From NCBI RefSeq assembly GCF_001677475.2, contig NZ_CP015229.1: a stretch of 64,000 nt of DNA, one strand, 5' to 3'. Under the pieces are notes generated by a model, which searched no databases, was not told the origin of the DNA, and was given only the letters and a program-made list of their open reading frames with translations. The translations under genes and the position numbers were made by a program. Shown here piece by piece: positions 10,920-43,533 of this stretch (the stretch's first letter is position 1; each line of letters begins with the position of its first letter). Source of the DNA: Escherichia coli (lineage in GTDB: Bacteria; Pseudomonadota; Gammaproteobacteria; Enterobacterales; Enterobacteriaceae).

Positions 10920-11894
10920 TCAACTTTCTGAGACAGATTCAGTTAAAGGTTTTTCCGGTTTTGCTCTGACTGCAATGACCACGCCAACCACTAACAGCGC
11001 GATACCGCTCAGCGTCATCAGCGGCGGCATTTGCTGGCGGAGTAAAAAGGTGTACAGCAAACCTGCCAGTGTTTCGAAAACAATCAGCGGCCCGAGAATC
11101 ACTGTCGGTAATCGCTGGCTGGCGACGTTCCAGCAGAGTGCGCCGACCCATGAGCAAAGCACGGCTATCGCAATCATCAGACTAATAAACACCAGCGGGC
11201 GGGGGCCAAAGGGTAGGGAGAAGTCCGGCGTTTGCGTATTCAGCCAGTAACAAGCGACGAGATAGCCGATAAGTGAAACCGGCAGTGTGACCAGCGCCTG
11301 CGCCGTTGCCCACATCATCGGATGTTTGTCGGGATTTTCCCGCAGCCAGCGGGCGTTGCGCAGGGCATACCATGCCCAGCAGACCACGGAAACTAACGCC
11401 AGCACGATGCCAGAGGTATAACGTGCCCAGTCAAAATCGGGGAGTCCGTGGTTTAACTCAGCAATATTCACGCACGCCAGGCCGATGCCAATACAAATCA
11501 GTGCCGGGGCGAGTCTTCCCCACGCGAGTTTGCCGTCGCGCTGGCTATAAAGCAGATTGGCAAAGACAGGAATCACCACCGGCAGGGTGCCGATAATCAT
11601 CGTGGAAACAGGCGCGCCAGTACGTTGAATGGCACTGGCAAGGCAGAAGTAATAAATGAGGTTGCCCATCATAGTGAGCATCAAGGCGGTAAGCCAGTCC
11701 CGACGCGCCAACTGACGCAAACGCACGCGTCCCAGCCAGGCAATGGGTAGCGCAATTAACCCTAACGCCAGATAACGCCCCATCGACTGCAACATCGCCG
11801 GGTATTCCGGCACAATCAACGGCCCGACAAAAATAAGCCCCCACATCAACCCTGCTAACAGGGCGTACAGCACGCCGCTAATCATTACTGGCAT
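10920..11894 (-). CDS. ytfF: Inner-membrane EamA/DMT-family transporter YtfF
   Basis: Hydrophobic ORF; synteny; exact start uncertain. Confidence 0.85.
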   Translation of the reverse strand: MPVMISGVLYALLAGLMWGLIFVGPLIVPEYPAMLQSMGRYLALGLIALPIAWLGRVRLRQLARRDWLTALMLTMMGNLIYYFCLASAIQRTGAPVSTMIIGTLPVVIPVFANLLYSQRDGKLAWGRLAPALICIGIGLACVNIAELNHGLPDFDWARYTSGIVLALVSVVCWAWYALRNARWLRENPDKHPMMWATAQALVTLPVSLIGYLVACYWLNTQTPDFSLPFGPRPLVFISLMIAIAVLCSWVGALCWNVASQRLPTVILGPLIVFETLAGLLYTFLLRQQMPPLMTLSGIALLVVGVVIAVRAKPEKPLTESVSES

Positions 11895-28266: not shown

Positions 28267-28677
28267 ATGTGGAAACGCTTACTTGTAGTCTCTGCAGTCT
28301 CGGCAGCCATGTCGTCTATGGCGTTGGCCGCTCCTTTAACCGTAGGATTTTCGCAGGTCGGATCGGAATCCGGCTGGCGCGCAGCAGAAACCAATGTGGC
28401 GAAAAGTGAGGCCGAAAAACGCGGAATTACGTTGAAAATCGCCGATGGTCAGCAAAAGCAGGAAAACCAGATTAAAGCGGTACGTTCCTTCGTTGCACAA
28501 GGGGTGGATGCGATCTTTATCGCTCCGGTGGTTGCGACGGGTTGGGAACCGGTATTAAAAGAGGCGAAAGATGCCGAAATCCCGGTCTTTTTGCTCGATC
28601 GTTCCATCGATGTGAAAGACAAATCTCTCTATATGACCACTGTTACTGCTGACAACATCCTCGAAGGTAAGTTATGA
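28267..28677 (+). pseudogene. ytfQ: ytfQ 5' fragment (galactofuranose-binding periplasmic protein), truncated by an IS insertion
   Basis: Signal peptide and N-terminal 135 residues up to ...ILEGKL, then a stop created at the IS junction. Confidence 0.85.
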
Positions 28678-28765
28678 GACGACAATAACTCAGTCCGCCT
28701 GGCGCCGATTATTCTGGCCGGTTTTGTAACCTGAGTGTCATTTACATGATCCAACAGGAAATGGC

Positions 28766-30265
28766 GTGACGCTCAATACTTCTCAGGTCAGTTACTATAT
28801 GACTCAGCGTAAGAAAGGTATAACTCAGCATATCTCGGCCATGAAGGCTGGTATCTCAGTCCGTTCTGGTCGTCGGATCGAAAAAGGAGAGTGGGCAAAA
28901 AACAGTGTTCGGCACTGGCGCACACGCAAAGATCCTCTGGAAGCTGTGTGGGACAGCATGCTTGTTCCTCTGTTGAAAGAGAGGCCGGCTCTGACACCAA
29001 CAACTCTACTGGAGATGCTACAGGATAAATATCCCGGCCAGTACCCCAACAGCCTTCGAAGAACAATGCAACGGCGGGTTCGCGAATGGAAACTACAGTA
29101 TGGTACAGAGCAGGAGGTCATGTTCCGCCAGCAACATCAGCCCGGCCTGCGAGGCCTGTCGGACTTTACTGAACTGAAAGGTGTAGTTGTCACCATCGCC
29201 GGTAAGTTGTTGGCGCATAAGTTGTATCACTTCCGTCTGGAATGGAGCCACTGGAGCTGGATGCGGGTTGTTCTGGGTGGTGAGAGCTTCTCTGCTCTGG
29301 CTGAAGGCCTGCAGGAAGCCCTCGGACAACTGGGCGGAGTGCCGGTAGAACATAAAACGGACAGCCTGAGGGCAGCATGGAAACAACAGGGCGAAGATGG
29401 ACGCCGCGAGCTGACTGAGCGTTATGCTACTCTCTGTCAGCACTACGGAATGCAGGGCGTACACAATAATGCCGGTCGGGGCCACGAAAATGGCTCGGTT
29501 GAAAGTGCCCACGGACATCTGAAAAGGCGTATCTGTCAGGCGCTGATACTGCGGGGCAGTAACGACTTCAGCACCATAGAAGAATATCAGGCCTTCATCA
29601 CTCAGCAGGTTATGCGGCACAACCGTAACAATCAGGATCTGGTCAAGGAAGAACGTCTTCATCTGAAACCGCTGCCGCTTCGTCGCAGTGCTGACTATGA
29701 TGAGCTGACTGTGAGGGTTAGTCGCAGCAGTACCATCAATGTGAAGCACGTCGTCTACAGCGTACCTTCCCGGCTTGTAGGTCAACTGTTACGGGTCAGG
29801 TTATGGGACGATCGTCTGAGCTGTTACGTTGGCAGCAGCGAGGTCATGAGCTGCCCTCGCGTCAGACCAGAAAAAGGGAAGACGCGGGCCCGTCGTATCG
29901 ACTTCCGACATGTGATCGACAGTCTGGCAAAAAAGCCCGGTGCGTTCTGCCATGCAACGCTGAGAAATGACATCCTGCCGGACGATGAATGGCGGAGGCT
30001 GTGGCGTCGCTTATGTAATCATCTGGAGCCCGATATGGCAGGAAGGCTGATGGTACATGCCCTGAAACTGGCTGCAGGATACGACGATATCTCAGTCGTG
30101 GCAAAAGGTATGGAGCAGATGCTGAATACCCCGGGAAACGTGGATCTGCACCGGCTGATGCGCTTCCTGGGTATAAAAGAAAAGGCGTTGCCGGTAGTCA
30201 ATGTGATACAGCATAACCTGAGCAGTTATGAGCAACTACTGCGTGGCAAGGGAGGTTCGCAGTGA
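28766..30265 (+). CDS. istA: IS21-family transposase IstA
   Basis: 499-aa ORF (GTG start) with an N-terminal HTH-like region; followed by overlapping istB. Confidence 0.8.
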   Translation: MTLNTSQVSYYMTQRKKGITQHISAMKAGISVRSGRRIEKGEWAKNSVRHWRTRKDPLEAVWDSMLVPLLKERPALTPTTLLEMLQDKYPGQYPNSLRRTMQRRVREWKLQYGTEQEVMFRQQHQPGLRGLSDFTELKGVVVTIAGKLLAHKLYHFRLEWSHWSWMRVVLGGESFSALAEGLQEALGQLGGVPVEHKTDSLRAAWKQQGEDGRRELTERYATLCQHYGMQGVHNNAGRGHENGSVESAHGHLKRRICQALILRGSNDFSTIEEYQAFITQQVMRHNRNNQDLVKEERLHLKPLPLRRSADYDELTVRVSRSSTINVKHVVYSVPSRLVGQLLRVRLWDDRLSCYVGSSEVMSCPRVRPEKGKTRARRIDFRHVIDSLAKKPGAFCHATLRNDILPDDEWRRLWRRLCNHLEPDMAGRLMVHALKLAAGYDDISVVAKGMEQMLNTPGNVDLHRLMRFLGIKEKALPVVNVIQHNLSSYEQLLRGKGGSQ

Positions 30266-31017
30266 GCAATATCCATCACCTTGAACATAGCCTGCGTAAA
30301 CTACGCCTGACACGAGTTGGAGCTGAATGGCACGCTCTGGAAAAACGAGCGCTGGCAGAAGGCTGGACACCATCGCGCTATCTTCTGACGCTATGCAATG
30401 AAGAACTCCTGTGGCGCGAGAGTGAAAAACTGCGTCGTTATAAAAAGGAGGCCCGGTTGCCAGTTGCCAAAACGCTGAGCGAATACGACTTCAGTCAGGT
30501 GCCGGAACTGAATGGAGCTCAGTTCCGGCAACTCTGTGAAACGACAGACTGGGTTGATGCAGGAGAAAACGTTCTGCTGTTCGGAGCCAGCGGGTTGGGG
30601 AAAAGCCATCTGGCGGCAGCGATCGTGGATGGCGTAGTAGGTCAGGGCTACCGGGCCCGGTTCTACAGCGCAGGAGAGCTGTTGCAGGAACTACGTAAAG
30701 CCAGAGCTCAGTTGAAACTGAATGAGCTGCTACTGAAACTGGATCGCTACCGGGTGATAGTGGTGGATGATCTTGGCTATGTCAAACGCGATAGTGCCGA
30801 AACGGGTGTGCTGTTCGAGTTAATAGCGCATCGCTATGAACGTGGGAGCCTGGTGATAACCAGTAACCATCCGTTCAGCATGTGGGGCAGCATCTTCGTG
30901 GATGAGACTATGGCGGTGGCTGCGGCAGACAGGCTGATCCATCACGGATATATGTTCGAACTGAAAGGGGAAAGCTACAGGAAAAAGACAGCGAAGGCAG
31001 TAACAAGCGCGACTTGA
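30262..31017 (+). CDS. istB: IS21-family helper ATPase IstB
   Basis: 251-aa ORF with Walker A GASGLGKSHLA; start overlaps the istA stop. Confidence 0.85.
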   Translation: MSNIHHLEHSLRKLRLTRVGAEWHALEKRALAEGWTPSRYLLTLCNEELLWRESEKLRRYKKEARLPVAKTLSEYDFSQVPELNGAQFRQLCETTDWVDAGENVLLFGASGLGKSHLAAAIVDGVVGQGYRARFYSAGELLQELRKARAQLKLNELLLKLDRYRVIVVDDLGYVKRDSAETGVLFELIAHRYERGSLVITSNHPFSMWGSIFVDETMAVAAADRLIHHGYMFELKGESYRKKTAKAVTSAT

Positions 31018-31084
31018 TGTCGCCCTGAAGGGTGCGGCCAGTATAGTTGGCGCGAGTCGGCAAAACTAGTTGACGTCTAATAGT

Positions 31085-31639
31085 AAGTTGATTGGTGACT
31101 GGCTGGTAAAAGAAGTCAACGGCAAACCGTGTAACGTGGTTGAGTTGCAGGGGACGGTTGGGGCAAGCGTTGCCATTGACCGTAAAAAAGGCTTTGCCGA
31201 AGCCATTAAGAGTGCGCCAAACATCAAAATCATCCGCTCACAGTCCGGTGACTTCACCCGTAGTAAAGGCAAAGAAGTGATGGAGAGCTTTATCAAAGCG
31301 GAAAACAACGGCAAAAACATCTGCATGGTTTACGCCCATAACGACGACATGGTGATTGGCGCAATTCAGGCAATTAAAGAAGCGGGACTGAAACCGGGCA
31401 AAGATATCCTCACGGGTTCCATTGACGGCGTGCCGGATATCTACAAAGCGATGATGGATGGCGAAGCGAACGCCAGCGTTGAATTGACGCCGAACATGGC
31501 AGGCCCCGCTTTTGACGCGCTGGAGAAATACAAAAAAGACGGCACTATGCCTGAAAAGTTGACCCTGACCAAATCCACCCTTTACCTGCCTGATACTGCA
31601 AAAGAAGAGTTAGAGAAGAAGAAAAATATGGGGTATTGA
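31085..31639 (+). pseudogene. ytfQ: ytfQ 3' fragment
   Basis: Reading frame resumes at ...KLIGDWLVKEVNGKPCNVVELQG... and runs to the native stop; the track ORF begins at a TTG inside the IS end (31070). Confidence 0.85.
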
Positions 31640-31649
31640 GGGACATCAA

Positions 31650-31805
31650 TACCTGATGCCGACTTGTACGCCGCCGGATAAGGCGTTTATGCCGCATCCG
31701 GCGGTTGTGTGCGGATGCCTGATGCGACGCTGGCGCGTCTTATCATGCCTACGAGTTCGATACTCTGTGTAGGCCGGATAAGGCGTTCACGCCGCATCCG
31801 GCAGT
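31650..31805. repeat. REP/BIME cluster (at least three palindromic units)
   Basis: Repeated GCCGGATAAGGCG...GCCGCATCCGGC-type units between ytfQ and ytfR. Confidence 0.75.
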
Positions 31806-31839
31806 TGTGCAGTACCGGACTTAACACCATGCACAATCT

Positions 31840-31879
31840 GTCCCCTCGCCCCTTCGGGGAGAGGGTTAGGGTGAGGGGG
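31840..31879. repeat. GC-rich hairpin repeat, copy 1 (TCCCCTCGCCCCTTCGGGGAGAGGGTTAGGGTGAGGGGG)
   Basis: A near-identical element recurs at 41350..41389. Confidence 0.6.
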
Positions 31880-31951
31880 ACAAACGGCGCAGCTCTTAAC
31901 ATCAGGCACGATCTATTCCCAGACTTTTAGAGCGTGGCTAAGGGGGAAACC

Positions 31952-33454
31952 ATGACGACCGACCAACACCAGGAAATCCTCCGCACCGAAGGATTAAGTA
32001 AATTTTTCCCCGGCGTCAAAGCGTTAGATAACGTTAATTTCAGCCTGCGCCGTGGCGAAATCATGGCGCTGCTCGGTGAAAACGGGGCGGGAAAATCAAC
32101 GCTAATCAAAGCATTAACCGGTGTATACCACGCCGATCGCGGCACCATCTGGCTGGAAGGCCAGGCTATCTCACCGAAAAATACCGCCCATGCACAACAA
32201 CTCGGCATCGGCACCGTCTATCAGGAAGTCAACCTGCTACCCAATATGTCGGTTGCTGATAATCTATTCATAGGTCGCGAACCCAAACGTTTCGGCCTTC
32301 TACGCCGTAAAGAGATGGAAAAGCGCGCCACCGAACTGATGGCATCTTACGGTTTCTCCCTCAACGTGCGCGAACCGCTCAACCGCTTTTCAGTCGCGAT
32401 GCAGCAAATCGTTGCCATCTGCCGGGCTATCGATCTCTCTGCCAAAGTGCTGATCCTCGATGAACCCACCGCCAGTCTCGACACCCAGGAAGTGGAATTA
32501 TTATTTGGCCTGATGCGTCAGCTTCGCGATCGCGGCGTCAGCCTGATCTTTGTCACTCACTTTCTCGATCAGGTCTATCAGGTCAGCGATCGGATCACCG
32601 TCTTACGCAACGGCAGTTTCGTAGGCTGTCGGGAAACGCGCGAGCTACCGCAGATCGAACTGGTAAAAATGATGCTGGGGCGCGAGCTGGATACCCACGC
32701 GCTACAGCGTGCCGGGCGAACGTTACTGAGCGACAAACCCGTTGCCGCGTTTAACAATTACGGCAAGAAAGGAACGATCACGCCGTTTGATCTCGAAGTA
32801 CGCCCCGGCGAGATCGTCGGCCTGGCTGGCCTGCTGGGTTCCGGGCGTACCGAAACCGCCGAAGTGATCTTCGGGATCAAACCCGCCGACAGCGGCACGG
32901 CGCTGATCAAAGGCAAACCGCAAACCCTGCGATCGCCACATCAGGCTTCGGTTCTTGGCATCGGCTTTTGCCCGGAAGACAGGAAAACCGATGGCATCAT
33001 CGCCGCCGCCTCGGTGCGGGAAAATATCATCCTGGCGCTACAGGCCCAGCGCGGCTGGCTGCGACCAATTTCCCGCAAAGAACAGCAAGAAATTGCCGAA
33101 CGCTTTATCCGCCAGCTTGGCATTCGCACCCCTTCCACTGAACAGCCGATAGAGTTTCTCTCCGGTGGCAATCAGCAAAAAGTGTTGCTCTCACGCTGGC
33201 TGCTCACCCGACCGCAATTTCTGATCCTCGACGAGCCAACCCGCGGCATTGATGTTGGTGCCCACGCCGAGATCATTCGCCTGATTGAAACGCTGTGCGC
33301 CGACGGTCTGGCGCTGCTGGTGATCTCCTCCGAACTGGAAGAGCTGGTAGGCTATGCCGATCGGGTGATCATCATGCGCGATCGCAAACAGGTGGCGGAG
33401 ATCCCGCTGGCAGAGCTTTCCGTTCCGGCGATCATGAACGCCATTGCGGCGTAA
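31952..33454 (+). CDS. ytfR: ABC transporter ATP-binding protein YtfR (tandem ATPase domains)
   Basis: Two Walker A motifs (GENGAGKST, GLLGSGRTE); start taken at the ATG at 31952 (500 aa). Confidence 0.9.
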   Translation: MTTDQHQEILRTEGLSKFFPGVKALDNVNFSLRRGEIMALLGENGAGKSTLIKALTGVYHADRGTIWLEGQAISPKNTAHAQQLGIGTVYQEVNLLPNMSVADNLFIGREPKRFGLLRRKEMEKRATELMASYGFSLNVREPLNRFSVAMQQIVAICRAIDLSAKVLILDEPTASLDTQEVELLFGLMRQLRDRGVSLIFVTHFLDQVYQVSDRITVLRNGSFVGCRETRELPQIELVKMMLGRELDTHALQRAGRTLLSDKPVAAFNNYGKKGTITPFDLEVRPGEIVGLAGLLGSGRTETAEVIFGIKPADSGTALIKGKPQTLRSPHQASVLGIGFCPEDRKTDGIIAAASVRENIILALQAQRGWLRPISRKEQQEIAERFIRQLGIRTPSTEQPIEFLSGGNQQKVLLSRWLLTRPQFLILDEPTRGIDVGAHAEIIRLIETLCADGLALLVISSELEELVGYADRVIIMRDRKQVAEIPLAELSVPAIMNAIAA

Positions 33455-33464
33455 GGAGAACAGT

Positions 33465-34490
33465 GTGATGCCTCAATCTCTCCCGGACACCACGCCGCCA
33501 AAAAGGCGCTTTCGCTGGCCGACGGGGATGCCGCAGCTGGTAGCGCTATTGCTGGTGCTGCTGGTCGACAGCCTGGTGGCCCCGCATTTCTGGCAGGTGG
33601 TGCTTCAGGATGGGCGTTTGTTCGGTAGCCCTATCGACATTCTTAACCGTGCGGCTCCCGTTGCGCTGTTGGCTATCGGAATGACGCTGGTGATCGCAAC
33701 AGGTGGGATTGATCTCTCTGTGGGGGCGGTGATGGCTATCGCCGGAGCCACAACGGCTGCGATGACGGTCGCGGGATTCAGCCTGCCGATTGTTTTGTTA
33801 AGCGCCCTGGGCACCGGCATCCTGGCGGGATTGTGGAACGGCATACTGGTAGCGATCCTCAAAATTCAGCCGTTTGTCGCCACCTTGATCCTGATGGTCG
33901 CCGGGCGCGGCGTGGCGCAACTGATCACCGCCGGGCAGATCGTCACGTTTAACTCGCCGGATCTCTCATGGTTTGGCAGTGGATCGCTATTGTTCCTGCC
34001 AACACCAGTCATTATTGCGGTACTGACGCTTCTCCTGTTCTGGCTGTTGACCCGCAAAACGGCACTGGGGATGTTTATCGAAGCCGTTGGTATCAACATT
34101 CGGGCGGCAAAAAATGCCGGGGTAAACACGCGAATCATCGTCATGCTCACCTACGTGTTGAGCGGGCTATGTGCGGCGATTGCGGGCATTATCGTGGCGG
34201 CGGATATTCGCGGTGCCGATGCCAACAACGCCGGATTATGGCTGGAGCTGGACGCAATTCTCGCGGTGGTGATTGGCGGCGGATCGCTGATGGGCGGGCG
34301 CTTTAACCTGCTGCTTTCAGTGGTGGGGGCGCTGATTATTCAGGGAATGAACACCGGAATTTTGCTTTCTGGCTTTCCGCCGGAGATGAACCAGGTCGTA
34401 AAAGCGGTGGTGGTGCTTTGCGTGCTGATTGTCCAGTCGCAACGCTTTATCAGTCTGATTAAAGGGGTACGTAGCCATGATAAAACGTAA
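33465..34490 (+). CDS. ytfT: ABC transporter permease YtfT
   Basis: Hydrophobic ORF; AAGGAG Shine-Dalgarno-like sequence before the GTG/ATG at 33465/33468. Confidence 0.88.
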   Translation: MMPQSLPDTTPPKRRFRWPTGMPQLVALLLVLLVDSLVAPHFWQVVLQDGRLFGSPIDILNRAAPVALLAIGMTLVIATGGIDLSVGAVMAIAGATTAAMTVAGFSLPIVLLSALGTGILAGLWNGILVAILKIQPFVATLILMVAGRGVAQLITAGQIVTFNSPDLSWFGSGSLLFLPTPVIIAVLTLLLFWLLTRKTALGMFIEAVGINIRAAKNAGVNTRIIVMLTYVLSGLCAAIAGIIVAADIRGADANNAGLWLELDAILAVVIGGGSLMGGRFNLLLSVVGALIIQGMNTGILLSGFPPEMNQVVKAVVVLCVLIVQSQRFISLIKGVRSHDKT

Positions 34491-35472
34491 TTTGCCACTG
34501 ATGATCACCATCGGCGTCTTTGTGCTGGGCTATCTCTACTGTCTGACCCAGTTTCCCGGTTTTGCTTCCACAAGAGTGATCTGCAATATCCTGACCGATA
34601 ATGCCTTTCTTGGGATAATCGCCGTTGGCATGACCTTTGTGATCCTCTCCGGTGGGATCGATCTCTCCGTCGGTTCGGTGATCGCCTTTACTGGCGTGTT
34701 TCTGGCAAAAGTGATTGGCGATTTCGGCCTCTCGCCGCTGCTGGCGTTTCCGCTAGTGCTGGTGATGGGCTGTGCCTTCGGCGCATTTATGGGGCTTCTG
34801 ATCGACGCCCTGAAGATCCCGGCATTTATCATTACGCTTGCGGGGATGTTCTTTTTGCGCGGCGTCAGCTATCTCGTTTCGGAAGAGTCGATCCCGATAA
34901 ACCATCCCATTTATGACACGCTCTCAAGCCTTGCGTGGAAAATCCCTGGCGGCGGTCGCTTAAGTGCGATGGGACTGCTGATGTTGGCGGTGGTGGTTAT
35001 CGGCATATTCCTCGCGCATCGTACCCGTTTTGGTAATCAGGTATACGCCATTGGCGGCAACGCAACGTCGGCGAATCTGATGGGGATTTCCACTCGCAGC
35101 ACCACTATTCGCATTTATATGCTCTCCACCGGACTGGCAACGCTGGCGGGGATTGTCTTCTCGATTTATACCCAGGCCGGATATGCGCTGGCGGGCGTAG
35201 GAGTGGAACTGGATGCTATCGCCTCAGTGGTAATTGGCGGTACGCTTTTGAGCGGTGGCGTTGGAACGGTATTAGGGACGCTTTTTGGCGTGGCGATTCA
35301 GGGACTGATTCAGACTTACATAAACTTTGATGGCACGCTGAGCTCATGGTGGACGAAAATCGCCATCGGTATTTTGTTGTTTATTTTTATAGCATTACAG
35401 CGTGGATTAACGGTGCTGTGGGAGAATCGTCAGAGTTCGCCTGTGACAAGAGTCAACATTGTGCAGCGATAA
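34477..35472 (+). CDS. yjfF: ABC transporter permease YjfF
   Basis: 331-aa hydrophobic ORF overlapping the ytfT 3' end. Confidence 0.9.
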   Translation: MIKRNLPLMITIGVFVLGYLYCLTQFPGFASTRVICNILTDNAFLGIIAVGMTFVILSGGIDLSVGSVIAFTGVFLAKVIGDFGLSPLLAFPLVLVMGCAFGAFMGLLIDALKIPAFIITLAGMFFLRGVSYLVSEESIPINHPIYDTLSSLAWKIPGGGRLSAMGLLMLAVVVIGIFLAHRTRFGNQVYAIGGNATSANLMGISTRSTTIRIYMLSTGLATLAGIVFSIYTQAGYALAGVGVELDAIASVVIGGTLLSGGVGTVLGTLFGVAIQGLIQTYINFDGTLSSWWTKIAIGILLFIFIALQRGLTVLWENRQSSPVTRVNIVQR

Positions 35473-35504
35473 AAACGCCTCTCCGTGTGGAGAGGCGCAG
35501 GAGA

Positions 35505-36503
35505 TTACGCGTCCGGGAACTCACGGATAAAGCGTTCGACATCTTCAACCATATGGTCGTTGCCGACAAAGAATGAACGGCGCTGGTGCAGGGTTTCCGG
35601 GATGATATCCAGAATACGCTCTTTGCCATCGCTCGCTTTACCGCCCGCTTGTTCCGCCAGGAATGCCATCGGGTTGCACTCATACAGCAAACGCAGTTTG
35701 CCGTCCGGGTGGCTGGCGGTACTTGGGTAGAGATAAATACCGCCTTTCAGCAGGTTACGGTGGAAATCCGCAACCAGTGAGCCGATATAACGTGAGGTAT
35801 ACGGGCGGTTGGTGGACTTATCTTCTTCCTGGCAGAATTTAATGTACTTCTTCACCCCGTTCGGAAACTTAATGTAGTTTCCTTCGTTGATGGAGTAGGT
35901 TTTGCCTTTCTCCGGGAAGCGCATCCGTTCCTGGCACAGACAGAAAACGCCGAGCGAAGGATCGTAAGTAAAGGCGTGAACACCGCATCCGGTGGTGTAA
36001 ACCAGCATGGTAGAGGAGCCGTATACCACGTAACCTGCCGCAACCTGCTTGTTACCAGGCTGGAGGAAATCTTCTTCCGTTACCGGCGTGCCAACAGGCG
36101 TAACGCGGCGGTAGATGGAGAAAATGGTACCGACAGAGACGTTAACATCGATGTTGGACGAGCCATCCAGGGGGTCCATCAGCACCACGTATTTTGCGTG
36201 TTCACAGCCTTCAAAGACGACAATCTCATCTTCTTCTTCAGAGGCAATGCCCGCAACGATATCGCGTGCTTTCAGTGCGGCTTTCAGTTTTTCATTAGCG
36301 AACAAGTCGAGTTTCTGCTGAACCTCGCCCTGCACATTCTCAGCACCGCTGGCACCCAGGATATCAACCAGTCCTGCTTTGTTGATATCGCGATGGATAA
36401 TCTTGGCGCCCAGTTTTATTGCCGACAGCAAAGCAGTGAGCTCACCGGTAGCATGAGAAAACTCGTGCTGCTTTTCGACAATAAATTCACCTAACGTTTT
36501 CAT
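35505..36503 (-). CDS. fbp: Fructose-1,6-bisphosphatase class 1
   Basis: 332-aa product from [12 protein letters not shown]; the track ORF is extended upstream. Confidence 0.93.
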
Positions 36504-36678
36504 AAAACTTTCCCTGCAATGTTTATGGAGTAAAGCGACCGCAACAATCTTAACAAATAATCTCAATGTTGCGCTCAGGTGAATCGCGCCAGCAAATTGC
36601 GGATTATCCTGAAATGCGTTTCTCACTTGCCCGACATATGCGTAAAATGAGCGGCAGATTAAAAAAGGATAGTGACGT

Positions 36679-38052
36679 ATGCGCATTCATATTTTAGGAA
36701 TTTGTGGCACGTTTATGGGCGGTCTGGCGATGCTGGCGCGCCAGTTAGGCCATGAAGTAACGGGTTCGGACGCCAATGTGTATCCGCCGATGAGCACCTT
36801 ACTTGAGAAGCAAGGCATTGAACTGATTCAGGGTTACGATGCCAGCCAGCTCGACCCGCAGCCGGATCTGGTGATTATTGGCAACGCCATGACCCGTGGA
36901 AATCCGTGTGTGGAAGCGGTACTGGAAAAAAACATCCCTTATATGTCAGGTCCGCAGTGGCTGCACGATTTTGTGCTGCGCGACCGCTGGGTGCTGGCCG
37001 TTGCCGGTACACACGGCAAAACCACCACGGCGGGAATGGCGACCTGGATTCTGGAACAGTGTGGTTACAAACCGGGATTTGTGATCGGCGGTGTGCCGGG
37101 GAACTTTGAGGTTTCGGCGCGTCTGGGCGAAAGCGACTTCTTTGTTATCGAAGCGGATGAGTATGACTGCGCCTTCTTCGACAAACGCTCTAAATTTGTC
37201 CATTACTGCCCGCGTACGCTGATCCTCAACAACCTTGAGTTCGATCACGCCGATATCTTTGACGACCTGAAAGCGATCCAGAAACAGTTCCACCATCTGG
37301 TGCGTATCGTTCCGGGGCAGGGGCGTATTATCTGGCCGGAAAACGACATCAACCTGAAACAGACCATGGCGATGGGCTGCTGGAGCGAGCAGGAGCTGGT
37401 GGGCGAGCAAGGTCACTGGCAGGCGAAAAAGCTGACCACCGATGCTTCCGAATGGGAAGTCTTGCTGGATGGCGAAAAAGTGGGCGAAGTGAAATGGTCG
37501 CTGGTAGGCGAACATAATATGCACAATGGCCTGATGGCGATTGCGGCGGCTCGCCATGTTGGTGTAGCGCCGGCAGATGCCGCTAACGCGCTGGGTTCGT
37601 TTATTAATGCTCGTCGCCGTCTGGAGTTGCGTGGTGAAGCGAATGGCGTCACGGTATATGACGATTTTGCCCATCACCCGACGGCGATTCTGGCAACGCT
37701 TGCGGCGCTGCGTGGCAAAGTTGGTGGTACGGCGCGCATTATTGCTGTGCTGGAGCCGCGTTCGAATACCATGAAAATGGGGATCTGCAAAGATGATTTG
37801 GCACCGTCACTAGGTCGTGCCGATGAAGTCTTCCTGCTGCAACCGTCGCATATTCCGTGGCAGGTGGCAGAAGTGGCAGAAGCCTGCGTTCAGCCTGCAC
37901 ACTGGAGCGGCGATGTGGATACGCTGGCAGATATGGTGGTGAAAACCGCTCAGCCTGGCGACCATATTCTGGTGATGAGCAATGGCGGTTTTGGTGGGAT
38001 CCATCAGAAACTGCTGGATGGACTGGCGAAGAAGGCGGAAGCTGCGCAGTAA
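36679..38052 (+). CDS. mpl: UDP-N-acetylmuramate:L-alanyl-gamma-D-glutamyl-meso-diaminopimelate ligase (murein peptide ligase)
   Basis: 457-aa Mur-ligase-family ORF divergent from fbp. Confidence 0.93.
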
Positions 38053-38075
38053 TTCGGCTTCAGCATGATATAGCA

Positions 38076-38108
38076 TTGCCGGATAAGGCGTTTACGCCGC
38101 ATCCGGCA
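38076..38108. repeat. REP element
   Basis: TGCCGGATAAGGCGTTTACGCCGCATCCGGCA palindromic unit. Confidence 0.75.
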
Positions 38109-38134
38109 AACCATACTCACATCAACAACGAAAA

Positions 38135-38686
38135 TTACCCTTCGTTCTCCGCTAACTCGCGCAGATACTGGAAAATCTGGCGTGCGGATTTCGGCGGCTT
38201 ATTCCCTTCTTTCTCTTTCTTCGCGTTGCGGATCAGAGTACGCAGTTGCTGACGATCGGCATCGGGCCACAGATTTAATACTTCAGCGATGGCGTCATCA
38301 CCTTGATCGATCAGACGATCGCGCAGGTTTTCCAGTTTATGGAACAGTACCACCTGCTGGTTGTGACGGTTTTTCAGATTATCCAGCGCCTGACGGATCG
38401 GTTCAACATCGCGCTGGCGCAGCATCTTACCGATGAGCTGCAACTGGCGGCGGCGACCTTCCATCTTAATACGCTGGGCGAGCTCAATAGCCGCGCGCAG
38501 ATCCGCATCTAACGGGATCTTATCCAGCGCGTTTTTCCCCAGATCAACAATTTCCGCGCCAAGGCGTTTTAGCTCTTCGGCATCGCGTTTAATTTCACTT
38601 TTACTGACCCAGATAATTTCATCGTCTTCGTCTTCGATGTCATCACCGGGAACGTCGTCGAGCCAGTCTTCGGGCTGCTTAGTCAT
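38135..38686 (-). CDS. yjgA: Ribosome-associated protein YjgA (DUF615)
   Basis: 183-aa acidic/basic ORF; synteny. Confidence 0.9.
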
Positions 38687-38779
38687 CTCAGGCTCCTTAA
38701 AAAAAGAGGCTAATGTTACCAGTTAAGATGCGCACTGAAAAACGGTTCTCTGTTAGACTTCAGAGAAACTCTCTACATT

Positions 38780-40132
38780 ATGGCACTTGCAATGAAAGTA
38801 ATCTCTCAAGTTGAAGCGCAGCGCAAGATTCTGGAAGAAGCAGTTTCCACTGCGCTGGAGTTGGCCTCAGGCAAATCGGACGGTGCGGAAGTTGCCGTCA
38901 GCAAGACCACCGGCATTAGCGTAAGCACGCGTTATGGTGAAGTGGAGAATGTTGAATTCAATAGCGATGGCGCGCTGGGGATCACTGTTTATCACCAGAA
39001 CCGCAAAGGTAGCGCATCGTCTACCGATTTAAGCCCGCAGGCCATTGCCCGCACCGTACAGGCGGCGCTGGATATTGCCCGTTATACCTCGCCAGATCCC
39101 TGTGCCGGCGTGGCAGACAAAGAGCTGCTGGCCTTTGACGCACCGGATCTCGACTTGTTCCACCCTGCGGAAGTTTCCCCTGATGAAGCCATTGAACTGG
39201 CGGCCCGCGCTGAACAGGCGGCATTGCAGGCGGACAAACGCATCACCAATACCGAAGGTGGCAGCTTTAACAGCCACTACGGTGTCAAAGTTTTTGGCAA
39301 CAGCCACGGCATGTTGCAGGGTTACTGCTCTACGCGTCATTCGCTCTCCAGCTGTGTAATTGCTGAAGAAAATGGCGATATGGAGCGTGATTACGCCTAC
39401 ACCATTGGTCGTGCGATGAGCGATCTGCAAACGCCAGAGTGGGTTGGGGCCGACTGTGCTCGCCGTACTTTATCGCGCCTGTCACCGCGTAAACTCTCCA
39501 CCATGAAAGCGCCGGTCATTTTTGCCAATGAAGTGGCAACCGGGCTTTTTGGGCATCTGGTGGGGGCGATAGCGGGTGGATCGGTTTACCGTAAATCTAC
39601 CTTCCTGCTGGATTCGCTGGGTAAACAAATTCTGCCGGACTGGCTGACCATTGAAGAGCATCCGCATCTGCTGAAAGGGCTGGCCTCTACGCCATTCGAC
39701 AGCGAAGGTGTGCGCACCGAGCGTCGCGATATTATTAAAGATGGCATTCTGACTCAGTGGCTGCTGACCAGCTACTCGGCGCGGAAACTGGGGCTGAAAA
39801 GCACCGGGCATGCGGGCGGTATTCACAACTGGCGGATTGCCGGACAAGGTCTAAGCTTCGAGCAGATGCTCAAAGAGATGGGCACCGGGCTGGTGGTGAC
39901 GGAATTGATGGGCCAGGGCGTGAGTGCAATTACCGGTGATTATTCCCGTGGTGCGGCGGGCTTCTGGGTAGAAAACGGCGAAATTCAGTATCCGGTTAGC
40001 GAAATCACCATCGCAGGTAATTTAAAAGATATGTGGCGCAATATTGTCACCGTCGGTAACGATATTGAAACACGCAGTAATATACAGTGTGGTTCTGTGC
40101 TGTTGCCGGAGATGAAAATCGCCGGGCAGTAA
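38780..40132 (+). CDS. pmbA: Metalloprotease PmbA (TldE)
   Basis: 450-aa ORF; synteny. Confidence 0.93.
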
Positions 40133-40310
40133 AAAACTGGCGCGACCTGCCGCGCTTAAACTAAAAAATTACACAAAATCATTCGCACTGCATCGAGACG
40201 GAAAGTGAATGAGAGCCGGGGAGCGTACTCGTAGTACGTGACTCGGGCGAATGAGCGTAGCCGTCGATGAGGTGGTGTGAAGGATGAAGTGTAAATAAAA
40301 AAGGAAGTGA

Positions 40311-40700
<390 letters not shown>

Positions 40701-40744
40701 TTCCTTATTTCCCTGTTGCCTGCACTCAGGTAACAGGGAACTTA

Positions 40745-41209
40745 TCATCGCAAATGATGCACCACCTGATTGCTGCTGCCGCGCCAGATCAGGGAAGGGT
40801 CTTTTAAATCCTGCACAAATTTGCCGTCGACCAGCACGTTAATCAAATCAACAACCTGCATTTGCGCAGCGTTGAGTTCGTCGAGTTTATACCCTGTCCA
40901 CACCCAGATGTCTTTACCCGGACACTCGGCGCGGATGCGTTGTACCAGTTTCAGAATATCCGGCACGTTTTGCGGATGCAGCGGATCGCCGCCGGAGAGG
41001 GAAATCCCCTGGCGTTTGATGCGAGTGTCATTCAGATCGTTAATGATCTGGTCTTCCATTGCTTTGGTAAATGGCTGACCGGAATTTACCCGCCAGGTGC
41101 TTTTGTTATAGCAACCGGGGCATTCATGAACACACCCGGAGACAAACAGGGTGCAGCGAGTGCCGGGGCCGTTGACGATGTCGACAGGATAGTACTGATG
41201 AAAGTTCAT
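40745..41209 (-). CDS. nrdG: Anaerobic ribonucleoside-triphosphate reductase activating protein (radical SAM)
   Basis: 154-aa ORF with a CxxxCxxC-type cysteine cluster. Confidence 0.93.
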   Translation of the reverse strand: MNFHQYYPVDIVNGPGTRCTLFVSGCVHECPGCYNKSTWRVNSGQPFTKAMEDQIINDLNDTRIKRQGISLSGGDPLHPQNVPDILKLVQRIRAECPGKDIWVWTGYKLDELNAAQMQVVDLINVLVDGKFVQDLKDPSLIWRGSSNQVVHHLR

Positions 41210-41349
41210 TTTCGCTTCTCAATTGACGCCATGACTGCTCTGGTGCGTACGGGCGAAGTCCCCCGATGCTACGCATTTGCCTCCTTGCGACGACAAAAAC
41301 TGGCCAGAGGCAATTCATTATGTCGGGAATCAGGAAGGGGCACGAAACG

Positions 41350-41389
41350 GTCCCCTCTCCCTTGAGGGAGAGGGTTAGGATGAGGGTGG
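41350..41389. repeat. GC-rich hairpin repeat, copy 2 (TCCCCTCTCCCTTGAGGGAGAGGGTTAGGATGAGGGTGG)
   Basis: Near-identical to the element at 31840..31879; contains a 9-bp perfect stem CCCTCTCCC/GGGAGAGGG; lies between nrdD and nrdG. Confidence 0.6.
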
Positions 41390-41394
41390 AAGGA

Positions 41395-43533
41395 TTAACC
41401 TATCTGCCCATTTCCCAAATGTTTAACGCGGCGCTTAACTTCTTCCTGCTTACCAGCGTTAAACGGACGTGCATCCGGGCTACCTAAATATCCGCACACG
41501 CGGCGAGTCACCGACACACGGGAGGCGTCATGGTTACCACATTTCGGGCAAGTGAAGCCTTTGCTGGTGCACTCGAACTCGCCAGTAAAGCCACACTCGT
41601 AGCACTCATCGATCGGCGTATTGGTGCCGTAATACGGTACATGCTGATAGCTGTAATCCCAGACATCTTCCAGCGCCTTCAGGTTGTGCTGAATGTTTGG
41701 ATACTCGCCGTAGCAAATGAAACCACCGTTCGCCAGCGGCGGGTAAGGCGCTTCAAAGTCGATCTTGTCGTACGGGTTCACCTTCTTCTCCACATCGAGG
41801 TGGAAACTGTTGGTGTAGTAACCTTTATCGGTTACGCCCGGCACCACGCCAAACTCAGCAGTATCGAGACGGCAGAAGCGGTCGCACAGGTTTTCACTTG
41901 GCGTGCTGTAGAGACTGAAACCATAACCCGTTTCTTCTTTCCACTGATCCACTGCCTGACGCAGACGTTCAACAATCGCGATACCTTTCGCGCGAAGCTG
42001 CTCGTTGTCGTAAACATGTTCGCCGCCGAACAGCGCGTTAATGGTTTCGTGGATGCCGATGTAACCCAGCGAAATAGACGCACGACCGTTTTTGAAGATT
42101 TCAGAAACGTCGTCGTCAGCATTCAGACGCACGCCACAAGCGCCTTCCATATAGAGGATCGGGGCTACGCGCGCTTTCACGCCTTCGAGACGAGCGATAC
42201 GGGTCATCAGTGCCTTACGTGCCAGCACCAGACGTTCATCCAGCAGCTTCCAGAAGGTGGCTTCATCGCCTTTTGCTTCCAGAGCAATACGCGGCAGGTT
42301 CAGGCTGATCACGCCGAGGTTGTTACGACCATCGTGGATCTGCTCGCCGTTTTCATTTTCCCACACGCCGAGGAAGCTGCGGCAGCCCATCGGGGTTTTA
42401 AACGAACCGGTGACTTTCACTACCTGATCGTAGTTCAGGATATCCGGATACATGCGCTTGCTTGCGCACTCCAGCGCCAGCTGTTTGATGTCGTAGTTCG
42501 GATCGCCTTTTTTATGGTTCAGGCCATCGCGAATCGCAAACACCAGTTTCGGGAACACCGCCGTTTTACGGTTTTTACCGAGGCCGGCGATACGGTTACG
42601 CAGGATAGATTCCTGAATCAGGCGCGACTCCCAGCTGGTGCCCAGACCAAAACCAAAGGTTACAAACGGCGTTTGACCGTTGGCGGTATGCAGGGTGTTT
42701 ACTTCGTACTCCAGCGACTGGAAGGCATCGTAGCACTCTTTGATGGTACGAGAGTTAGCGTAGCCTTCGGCGTCCGGGATGTTCCACTCTTCCGCGGTCT
42801 TGCGATGTTTGTTGTAGCTGGCGGTGACAAATGGTGCCAGCACTTCATCGATACGGTTAATGGTGGTGCCGCCATAAATATGGCTGGCAACCTGAGCAAT
42901 AATCTGCGCAGTTACAGCGGTTGCCGTAGAGATCGACTTCGGCGGTTCAATCTCGGCGTTCCCCATTTTAAAGCCCTGGGTCAGCATGCCTTTCAGGTCG
43001 ATCAACATGCAGTTGAACATCGGGAAGAACGGCGAGTAATCGAGATCGTGATAGTGAATATCGCCACGCTCATGTGCCTGCACCACGTCACGCGGCAGCA
43101 GGTGCTGGCGTGCATAGTGTTTAGCCACGATCCCGGCCAGCAGGTCGCGCTGGGTTGGAATCACCTTGCTGTCTTTGTTGGCGTTTTCGTTGAGTAACGA
43201 GGAGTTGGTCTGCTCGACCAGACCACGGATCTCCTGGTTCAGGCGACCGCGTTTTTCACGTTCAATGTCGCGATCGTGACGGTACTCGATGTAAGCACGA
43301 GCCAGTTGTTTGTATGGACCTGACATCAGCTGGTTTTCAACTGCGGTCTGGATCTCATTGATATCCACTTGGTTGCGGCCCTGCATCTGCTCGCTGACAA
43401 CCGCGGCAACAGTGGCGCAATAATCGGCATCATCGACTTCCGCTGCTTTAGCTGCACGCAGAATCGCTTCTTTGATGCGCTCTGATTTAAACGGCACTTT
43501 GCAGCCGTCTCGTTTCATCACATGCGGTGTCAT
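41395..43533 (-). CDS. nrdD: Anaerobic ribonucleoside-triphosphate reductase (class III RNR)
   Basis: 712-aa ORF with C-terminal glycyl-radical region and CxxC zinc ribbon. Confidence 0.95.
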   Translation of the reverse strand: MTPHVMKRDGCKVPFKSERIKEAILRAAKAAEVDDADYCATVAAVVSEQMQGRNQVDINEIQTAVENQLMSGPYKQLARAYIEYRHDRDIEREKRGRLNQEIRGLVEQTNSSLLNENANKDSKVIPTQRDLLAGIVAKHYARQHLLPRDVVQAHERGDIHYHDLDYSPFFPMFNCMLIDLKGMLTQGFKMGNAEIEPPKSISTATAVTAQIIAQVASHIYGGTTINRIDEVLAPFVTASYNKHRKTAEEWNIPDAEGYANSRTIKECYDAFQSLEYEVNTLHTANGQTPFVTFGFGLGTSWESRLIQESILRNRIAGLGKNRKTAVFPKLVFAIRDGLNHKKGDPNYDIKQLALECASKRMYPDILNYDQVVKVTGSFKTPMGCRSFLGVWENENGEQIHDGRNNLGVISLNLPRIALEAKGDEATFWKLLDERLVLARKALMTRIARLEGVKARVAPILYMEGACGVRLNADDDVSEIFKNGRASISLGYIGIHETINALFGGEHVYDNEQLRAKGIAIVERLRQAVDQWKEETGYGFSLYSTPSENLCDRFCRLDTAEFGVVPGVTDKGYYTNSFHLDVEKKVNPYDKIDFEAPYPPLANGGFICYGEYPNIQHNLKALEDVWDYSYQHVPYYGTNTPIDECYECGFTGEFECTSKGFTCPKCGNHDASRVSVTRRVCGYLGSPDARPFNAGKQEEVKRRVKHLGNGQIG

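Follow-up and report, generated by a model that had tools for sequence, protein, structure and literature searches.

The window, by which is meant the whole 64-kb stretch of Escherichia coli DNA analyzed, contains two GC-rich repeat elements, each situated in an intercistronic spacer. Site 1 (GTCCCCTCGCCCCTTCGGGGAGAGGGTTAGGGTGAGGGGG, 31840-31879) lies between ytfQ and ytfR, 203 nt past the ytfQ stop codon (31639) and 73 nt ahead of the ytfR ATG (31952). Three REP units on the + strand, two at 31672-31749 and one at 31772-31816, were located upstream of it with the Rfam naRNA4 (REP-derived) model at scores of 73.3 and 42.5 bits and form part of the context rather than of the element. Site 2 (GTCCCCTCTCCCTTGAGGGAGAGGGTTAGGATGAGGGTGG, 41350-41389) lies between nrdD and nrdG, both encoded on the minus strand, 7 nt past the nrdD stop codon (41395-41397) and 143 nt ahead of the nrdG start (41209). 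As both copies are written on the + strand, a ytf transcript would carry the G-rich strand and an nrd transcript the C-rich complement, the two copies being opposite in orientation relative to transcription. The ytfQ gene (28267-31639 including the insert) is split after approximately codon 135 by a 2.4-kb ISEc10 element of the IS21 family (28674-31082) encoding a 499 aa IstA (28766-30265) and a 251 aa IstB (30262-31017, PF01695). The two ytfQ flanks share a 7-bp overlap, as would fit a target-site duplication, and the ytfQ-ISEc10 junction was found in no complete E. coli genome of the collection, where best coding identities were approximately 98-99%. The operon setting described in the first-pass annotation was thus correct with respect to both spacers and their genes, but the nrd genes are on the minus strand and ytfQ is interrupted. 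A 50-aa open reading frame was also noted in the nrdD-nrdG spacer (41124-41276, minus strand) with AAGGAGG 3 nt before its ATG; its frame differs from that of nrdG, whose start it overlaps, and it is probably spurious.

The two sequences are closely related. Near-identical elements of approximately 40 bp had been reported at these positions in the first-pass annotation, and both sequences are indeed present there. With as many as three mismatches tolerated, the window has exactly two occurrences of the 21-nt core GGGAGAGGGTTAGGRTGAGGG, and no match was obtained in 100 dinucleotide-preserving shuffles. A fuzzy three-block search of both strands of the window recovered these two copies and nothing else, with neither a type-B partner nor degenerate copies, so that both are solitary. 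Alignment of copy 1 with copy 2 indicated likeness over approximately 53 bp and unrelated sequence outside this. The copy 1 core (31843..31878, + strand) consists of a C-block CCCTCGCCCC (31843-31852), a first loop TTC (31853-31855), a first G-block GGGGAGAGGG (31856-31865), a second loop TTA (31866-31868) and a second G-block GGGTGAGGGG (31869-31878). Together with a 12-nt 5' leader, GCACAATCTGTC, and a short 3' tail, GACAA, this gives a full unit with approximate limits 31831..31883 (+ strand). The copy 2 core (41353..41387, + strand) similarly comprises block 1 CCCTCTCCC (41353-41361), a first loop TTGA (41362-41365), block 2 GGGAGAGGG (41366-41374), a second loop TTA (41375-41377) and block 3 GGATGAGGG (41378-41386) followed by T at 41387. 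With its 5' leader GCACGAAACGGTC and short 3' tail the unit extends over approximately 41340..41392 (+ strand).

Copy 2 carries a substitution in its third block, which reads GGATGAGGG in the window and GGGTGAGGG in four of four E. coli strains that share this allele of the locus. The presence of G at 41380 in these four strains indicates that the G>A change is derived in the lineage of the window. Relative to the nrdD-nrdG element of strain AST215, copy 2 differs by two substitutions, 41380 G>A and 41345 G>A, the latter at a position in the 5' leader. The change at 41380 removes one G from the third triplex block and from the third G-tract of a G-quadruplex motif. Copy 1 has the canonical motif G3N3G3N3G3N3G3 and in copy 2 this motif is broken by the 41380 substitution. 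One other canonical G-quadruplex motif is present in the window, GGGCGGGGGCCAAAGGGTAGGG at 11197-11218 on the + strand.

Judged by their sequences, both elements are copies of a known enterobacterial repeat, BoxC. What Holder et al. (2015, NAR 43:10126, PMC4666352) term TM_ECO is, by their account, the repeat known in the 1990s as BoxC and described by the Maher group in 2000 as the 'potential intrastrand triplex' (PIT) element. Copy 1 is an exact fit, at 31843-31877, to the search pattern used by Holder et al., 5'-CCCTCNCCC-N3-6-GGGNGAGGG-N3-GGGNGAGGG-3' (PMC4666352). Copy 2 falls outside the strict pattern through the single 41380 G>A substitution in its third block, and since four strains have GGGTGAGGG at this point it represents a point-mutated BoxC member and not a different family. 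When compared with the 23 K-12 copies in Table 1 of Holder et al. (PMC4666352), copy 1 was identical at 35/36 positions (97%) to 'A mm' copies 6, 7, 11, 15 and 23, the sole difference lying in loop 1, whilst copy 2 was identical at 34/35 positions to copy no. 2 of type A. Copy 1 was therefore assigned to BoxC/TM_ECO type 'A mm', from both pattern match and K-12 identity, and copy 2 to type 'A' with a derived G>A at 41380. The first-pass annotation had left the repeat family uncertain, and it is the comparison with boxC that identifies it.

Nine K-12 copies from eight loci were re-extracted with their flanks. A 5' leader of approximately 12 nt (consensus GCAC.A.CGGTC) was present in the two window copies as well as in those K-12 type-A copies that were examined, indicating that the BoxC unit extends to approximately 53 bp. 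In agreement with this length, published sizes are 51-59 bp for the 33 BoxC features of the K-12 GenBank record (PMC5172473) and 50-56 bp, with 22-32 copies, in a separate account (PMC2267715). All nine re-examined K-12 copies are intergenic, as are both window copies. K-12 is empty at both loci and the window copies are consequently not among its 23 listed copies. Neither ytfQ-ytfR nor nrdD-nrdG is named in the accessible portion of the supplementary tables of Holder et al., and a literature search on BoxC, PIT elements and TM_ECO returned no work later than that of Holder et al. 2015. For the window the result is mainly a correction of annotation, the element already having a name and a literature of its own. 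Separately, a BoxC copy adjoining tkt in E. coli (e.g. NZ_CP123255.1 1370899-1370985) shows approximately 79% identity to window positions 31838-31922; as this likeness continues 3' of the core for approximately 45 nt, a longer right-hand flank may be common to some copies.

A number of other identities were considered and rejected. The Rfam naRNA4 model matches the neighboring REPs and not the BoxC element, in agreement with the earlier description of the repeats as distinct from nearby REP/BIME units. An intrinsic (Rho-independent) terminator would be expected to carry a T-run, which is lacking here, and terminator and promoter scans of the window gave nothing at either element, the terminator scan having no site there on either strand. 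Published unit lengths are approximately 127 bp for IRU (ERIC) and approximately 150 bp for RSA (PMC5172473), and since likeness between the window copies is restricted to approximately 53 bp these families were set apart by unit length. A CRISPR-DR57 match reached 19.9 bits, below the gathering score of 39 (E = 2.2), and was taken as chance; the copies are moreover solitary, and a CRISPR repeat was also discounted. A match of Rfam Antizyme_FSE to the element was sub-threshold and taken as chance, and an Rfam E-value scan of 30000-43000 returned no family for the element. The reading of the elements as a chance GC-rich palindrome, an ordinary intrinsic terminator or a REP subtype has a superficial hairpin shape in its favor and nothing more. 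Given the absence of shuffle matches and of a T-tract, the failure of the REP model to detect the element and its 97% identity to catalogued BoxC copies, such a reading is extremely improbable.

The distribution of the repeat was determined in complete E. coli genomes. A 57-nt probe matched in 5425 of 5426 genomes, with a median of 18 copies and a range of 1 to 34, and these counts agree with the 23-33 reported for K-12. Outside E. coli, copy number is 143 in Enterobacter asburiae and zero in Salmonella. The description 'two-copy' in the first-pass annotation thus holds within the window but not genome-wide, where many further copies occur. RefSeq annotation has no feature marked under the BoxC matches. 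Both loci are variable between strains, E. coli AST215 and strain 120899 being examples of natural carriers. The ytfQ-ytfR BoxC allele was present in 877-880 of the 5426 genomes (approximately 16%) and the nrdD-nrdG BoxC allele in 408 (7.5%), the latter locus being occupied in 4609 genomes (85%) by a REP-type (BIME, K-12-like) allele. Neither locus has BoxC in K-12 MG1655, where the ytfQ-ytfR spacer measures 139 bp and contains REPs only, against approximately 312 bp in the window, and the nrdD-nrdG spacer contains two REPs in place of BoxC. At ytfQ-ytfR the population is bimodal, with genomes carrying either the full REP, BoxC and spacer allele or a K-12-like allele in which the match begins only at the ytfR ribosome-binding site. 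The nrdD-nrdG spacer (window 41195-41410) exists as two unrelated alleles, each with a stable hairpin immediately 3' of nrdD. A clean 'empty site' was sought at ytfQ-ytfR, and insertion boundaries and target duplications at both loci, and none could be read, because between alleles most of the spacer is replaced, with no clean insertion. This spacer replacement at both loci is the pattern reported by Holder et al., who observed 'intergenic change' in 39% of TM-locus comparisons and in <1% of controls (PMC4666352). The nrdD-nrdG locus in particular, where BoxC and REP alternate at one position, provides a natural allele pair for studying the spread and conservation of BoxC.

To place these copies in a wider context, species-representative genomes were scanned for the exact 21-mer and at least 120 stretches were recovered. 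Among the matches listed, two Pseudomonas genomes, sp. dw_612 and sp. EaCA-3, each carried at least approximately 30 copies, and the 21-mer was also present in Bradyrhizobium, Polaromonas, Contendobacter, Deltaproteobacteria, Thermodesulfobacteriota and Verrucomicrobiales, in a Ca. Gracilibacteria MAG and on one short Methanomicrobiaceae MAG contig. The upstream C-block was retained at all of these listed matches. The range exceeds that given by Holder et al., '262 proteobacterial genomes' (PMC4666352), with the caveat that matches on single MAG contigs may reflect contamination. In Pseudomonas the type-A core forms the right end of an approximately 190-bp composite repeat with an inverted type-B-like copy (CCCTCACCCCAGCCCTCTCCCC...GGGGAGAGGGG) at its left end, and the leader, C.CGAACGGTC or CTCGGTCAGTC, resembles that of E. 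coli including that of copy 2. The Ca. Gracilibacteria MAG JALNXF01 contains five perfect 21-mer copies on five contigs of 82-489 kb, at loci of 24-31% GC. Under genetic code 25 each of these copies is enclosed by a long open frame (212-1007 aa) and reads as PHPNPLPEGEG or LTLTLSQRERG, an arrangement that looks like in-frame intragenic insertion.

The folding potential of the window copies was assessed at both RNA and DNA level. The GC-rich stem-loops described in the first-pass annotation were reproduced, each copy being predicted to form a stem of 9-10 bp. Predicted RNA minimum free energies were -26.4 kcal/mol (+ strand) and -22.0 kcal/mol (- strand) for site 1, whereas site 2 gave -18.6/-19.2 kcal/mol on its two strands. 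Folding Z-scores against shuffles were modest (-2.4, -2.3, -0.5 and -2.3), as shuffled sequences composed of G/C blocks also fold well. Hairpins are all that ViennaRNA predicts, with RNA or with DNA-parameter folds. The blocks were also compared for triplex pairing, with block 3 antiparallel to block 2. In copy 1, blocks 1 and 2 form 9/10 Watson-Crick pairs with a G.A mismatch that is the hallmark of type 'mm', and all ten third-strand positions of block 3 against block 2 are allowed triplets (G*G, A*A, T*A). In copy 2, 9/9 Watson-Crick pairs are formed between blocks 1 and 2, and 8/9 triplets of block 3 are allowed, with A*G at the mutated position.

The BoxC unit of approximately 53 bp may accordingly be described as a leader of approximately 12 nt followed by three blocks of 9-10 nt, one C-rich and two G-rich, in which block 1 would pair with block 2 by Watson-Crick bonds and block 3 mirrors block 2. 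Because of this mirror relationship the isolated G-rich strand could fold back twice into a purine-motif triplex. At both loci BoxC is probably a passenger, that is, a non-coding repeat tolerated in intercistronic spacers, which would come and go along with REPs. If active at all, it would act at the DNA level by folding transiently whilst single-stranded during replication or repair, and such folding would promote local indels or replacement of the spacer. BoxC is not, we infer, a dedicated regulator of ytfR or nrdG. The passenger and instability interpretation is supported by the strain variability of both loci, by whole-spacer replacement and by the copy 2 substitution, which damages both triplex and G-quadruplex potential. 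The association of BoxC with instability is a correlation, and variable spacers may simply accumulate repeats. A passenger model of a purely neutral kind does not account for the perfect conservation of the 21-mer over distant phyla.

REP stabilization of upstream mRNA is established (malE-malF), and a comparable RNA-level role would have the transcribed 9-10-bp GC hairpin block 3'-5' exonucleases or attenuate weakly, so stabilizing the upstream cistron (nrdD or ytfQ) relative to the downstream one. The stable RNA hairpins predicted on both strands, the location of both copies in intercistronic spacers, the placement of the nrdD-nrdG element 7 nt past the stop codon at the position taken by REP in 85% of E. 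coli genomes, and an intra-operon copy between pstA and pstB in K-12 are all consistent with such a role. Against this, a T-tract is found in neither copy, the copies are oppositely oriented, most strains lack the element at these loci, and other genomes show no orientation bias: in a survey based on crude ORF contexts at 120 loci in diverse other genomes, tandem-gene contexts were divided 20 to 20 between the two orientations, with a further 19 loci convergent and 12 divergent. Published tests were also null, since according to work cited by Holder et al. BoxC has no promoter or terminator activity and leaves RNA polymerase unaffected, and purine-motif triplexes are not formed in RNA (PMC4666352). 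For these reasons the function as mRNA stabilizer or partial terminator that the first-pass annotation had suggested for the two elements is unsupported. A REP-like role in RNA is unlikely, and is retained at that level on account of the strong hairpins, the nrdD-proximal REP position and the pstA-pstB copy. In this strain an operon-level role at site 1 would in any case be moot, ytfQ being disrupted by the insertion sequence. It would be an over-reading to label these hairpins attenuators or terminators of ytfR or nrdG.

A further alternative is that BoxC is a selected non-B-DNA element, which as a triplex or G-quadruplex in vivo stalls replication or recruits repair and thereby provides adaptive local variation ('evolvability') or contributes to chromosome organization. 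CD and NMR of consensus oligonucleotides representing types A, B, A mm and B mm have demonstrated that the G-rich strand on its own folds into a very stable triplex of the purine motif, melting at 70-82 C, and TM loci are more variable than control loci (PMC4666352). The canonical G-quadruplex motif of copy 1 and the extreme conservation of the core across phyla also favor this explanation. However, with the complementary strand present only duplex DNA and no stable triplex was formed, no triplex signal was obtained by in vivo DMS footprinting, and NMR excluded a G-quadruplex for the full oligonucleotide (PMC4666352). A G-quadruplex identity was accordingly rejected for the window elements, of which copy 1 alone qualifies, and copy 2 has lost a G-tract without apparent consequence. 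The spread in copy number, 1 to 34 among E. coli genomes, speaks against an essential role. A selected structural function is on balance quite unlikely, and a tolerated passenger repeat is again the preferred interpretation of both copies.

Concerning how BoxC might spread, its core could be the active module of a non-autonomous element mobilized in trans and moving between lineages, although we consider this unlikely. It would then be recognized as a single-stranded DNA hairpin together with its conserved 5' leader, by analogy with the recognition of REPs by RAYT/HUH enzymes. If correct, mobilization in trans would cover the presence and absence of BoxC at both loci and the occurrence of an identical 21-mer in Proteobacteria, Verrucomicrobiales, Thermodesulfobacteriota and a 26%-GC Gracilibacteria genome, as well as the MITE-like Pseudomonas composite and the apparently in-frame Gracilibacteria copies.

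The window copies were also compared with known repeat systems. Like REP/BIME (PU) elements they are short GC-rich palindromic interspersed repeats of enterobacterial intergenic or intercistronic spacers, and the same nrdD-nrdG position is taken by either family in different strains. Unlike REP/BIME, the BoxC sequence is unrelated and is built of three blocks with mirror symmetry rather than as a simple palindrome, and the mRNA stabilization documented for REP has no documented counterpart in BoxC. The partner of REPs is the RAYT transposase; we know of no transposase partner or mobilizing enzyme for BoxC. The layout of the approximately 190-bp Pseudomonas composite repeat resembles that of MITEs, and the Gracilibacteria copies resemble Rickettsia palindromic elements (RPE) in lying within long open reading frames. 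In contrast to MITEs and RPE, the window copies are solitary units of approximately 53 bp that lack terminal inverted repeats, a target-site duplication and an associated transposase, and Holder et al. likewise found no mobilizing enzyme near the elements (PMC4666352). The closest correspondence is with BoxC/PIT/TM_ECO itself, with which the window copies share the three-block construction, the TTA second loop of type A, the G/T variant in block 1 that separates 'A mm' from 'A', the conserved 5' leader, an intergenic location, tens of copies per genome and strain-variable presence. The single substitution in copy 2 and the solitary disposition of both copies, without an inverted type-B partner nearby, are the particulars of the window pair, and there is no essential difference between these elements and the BoxC family.
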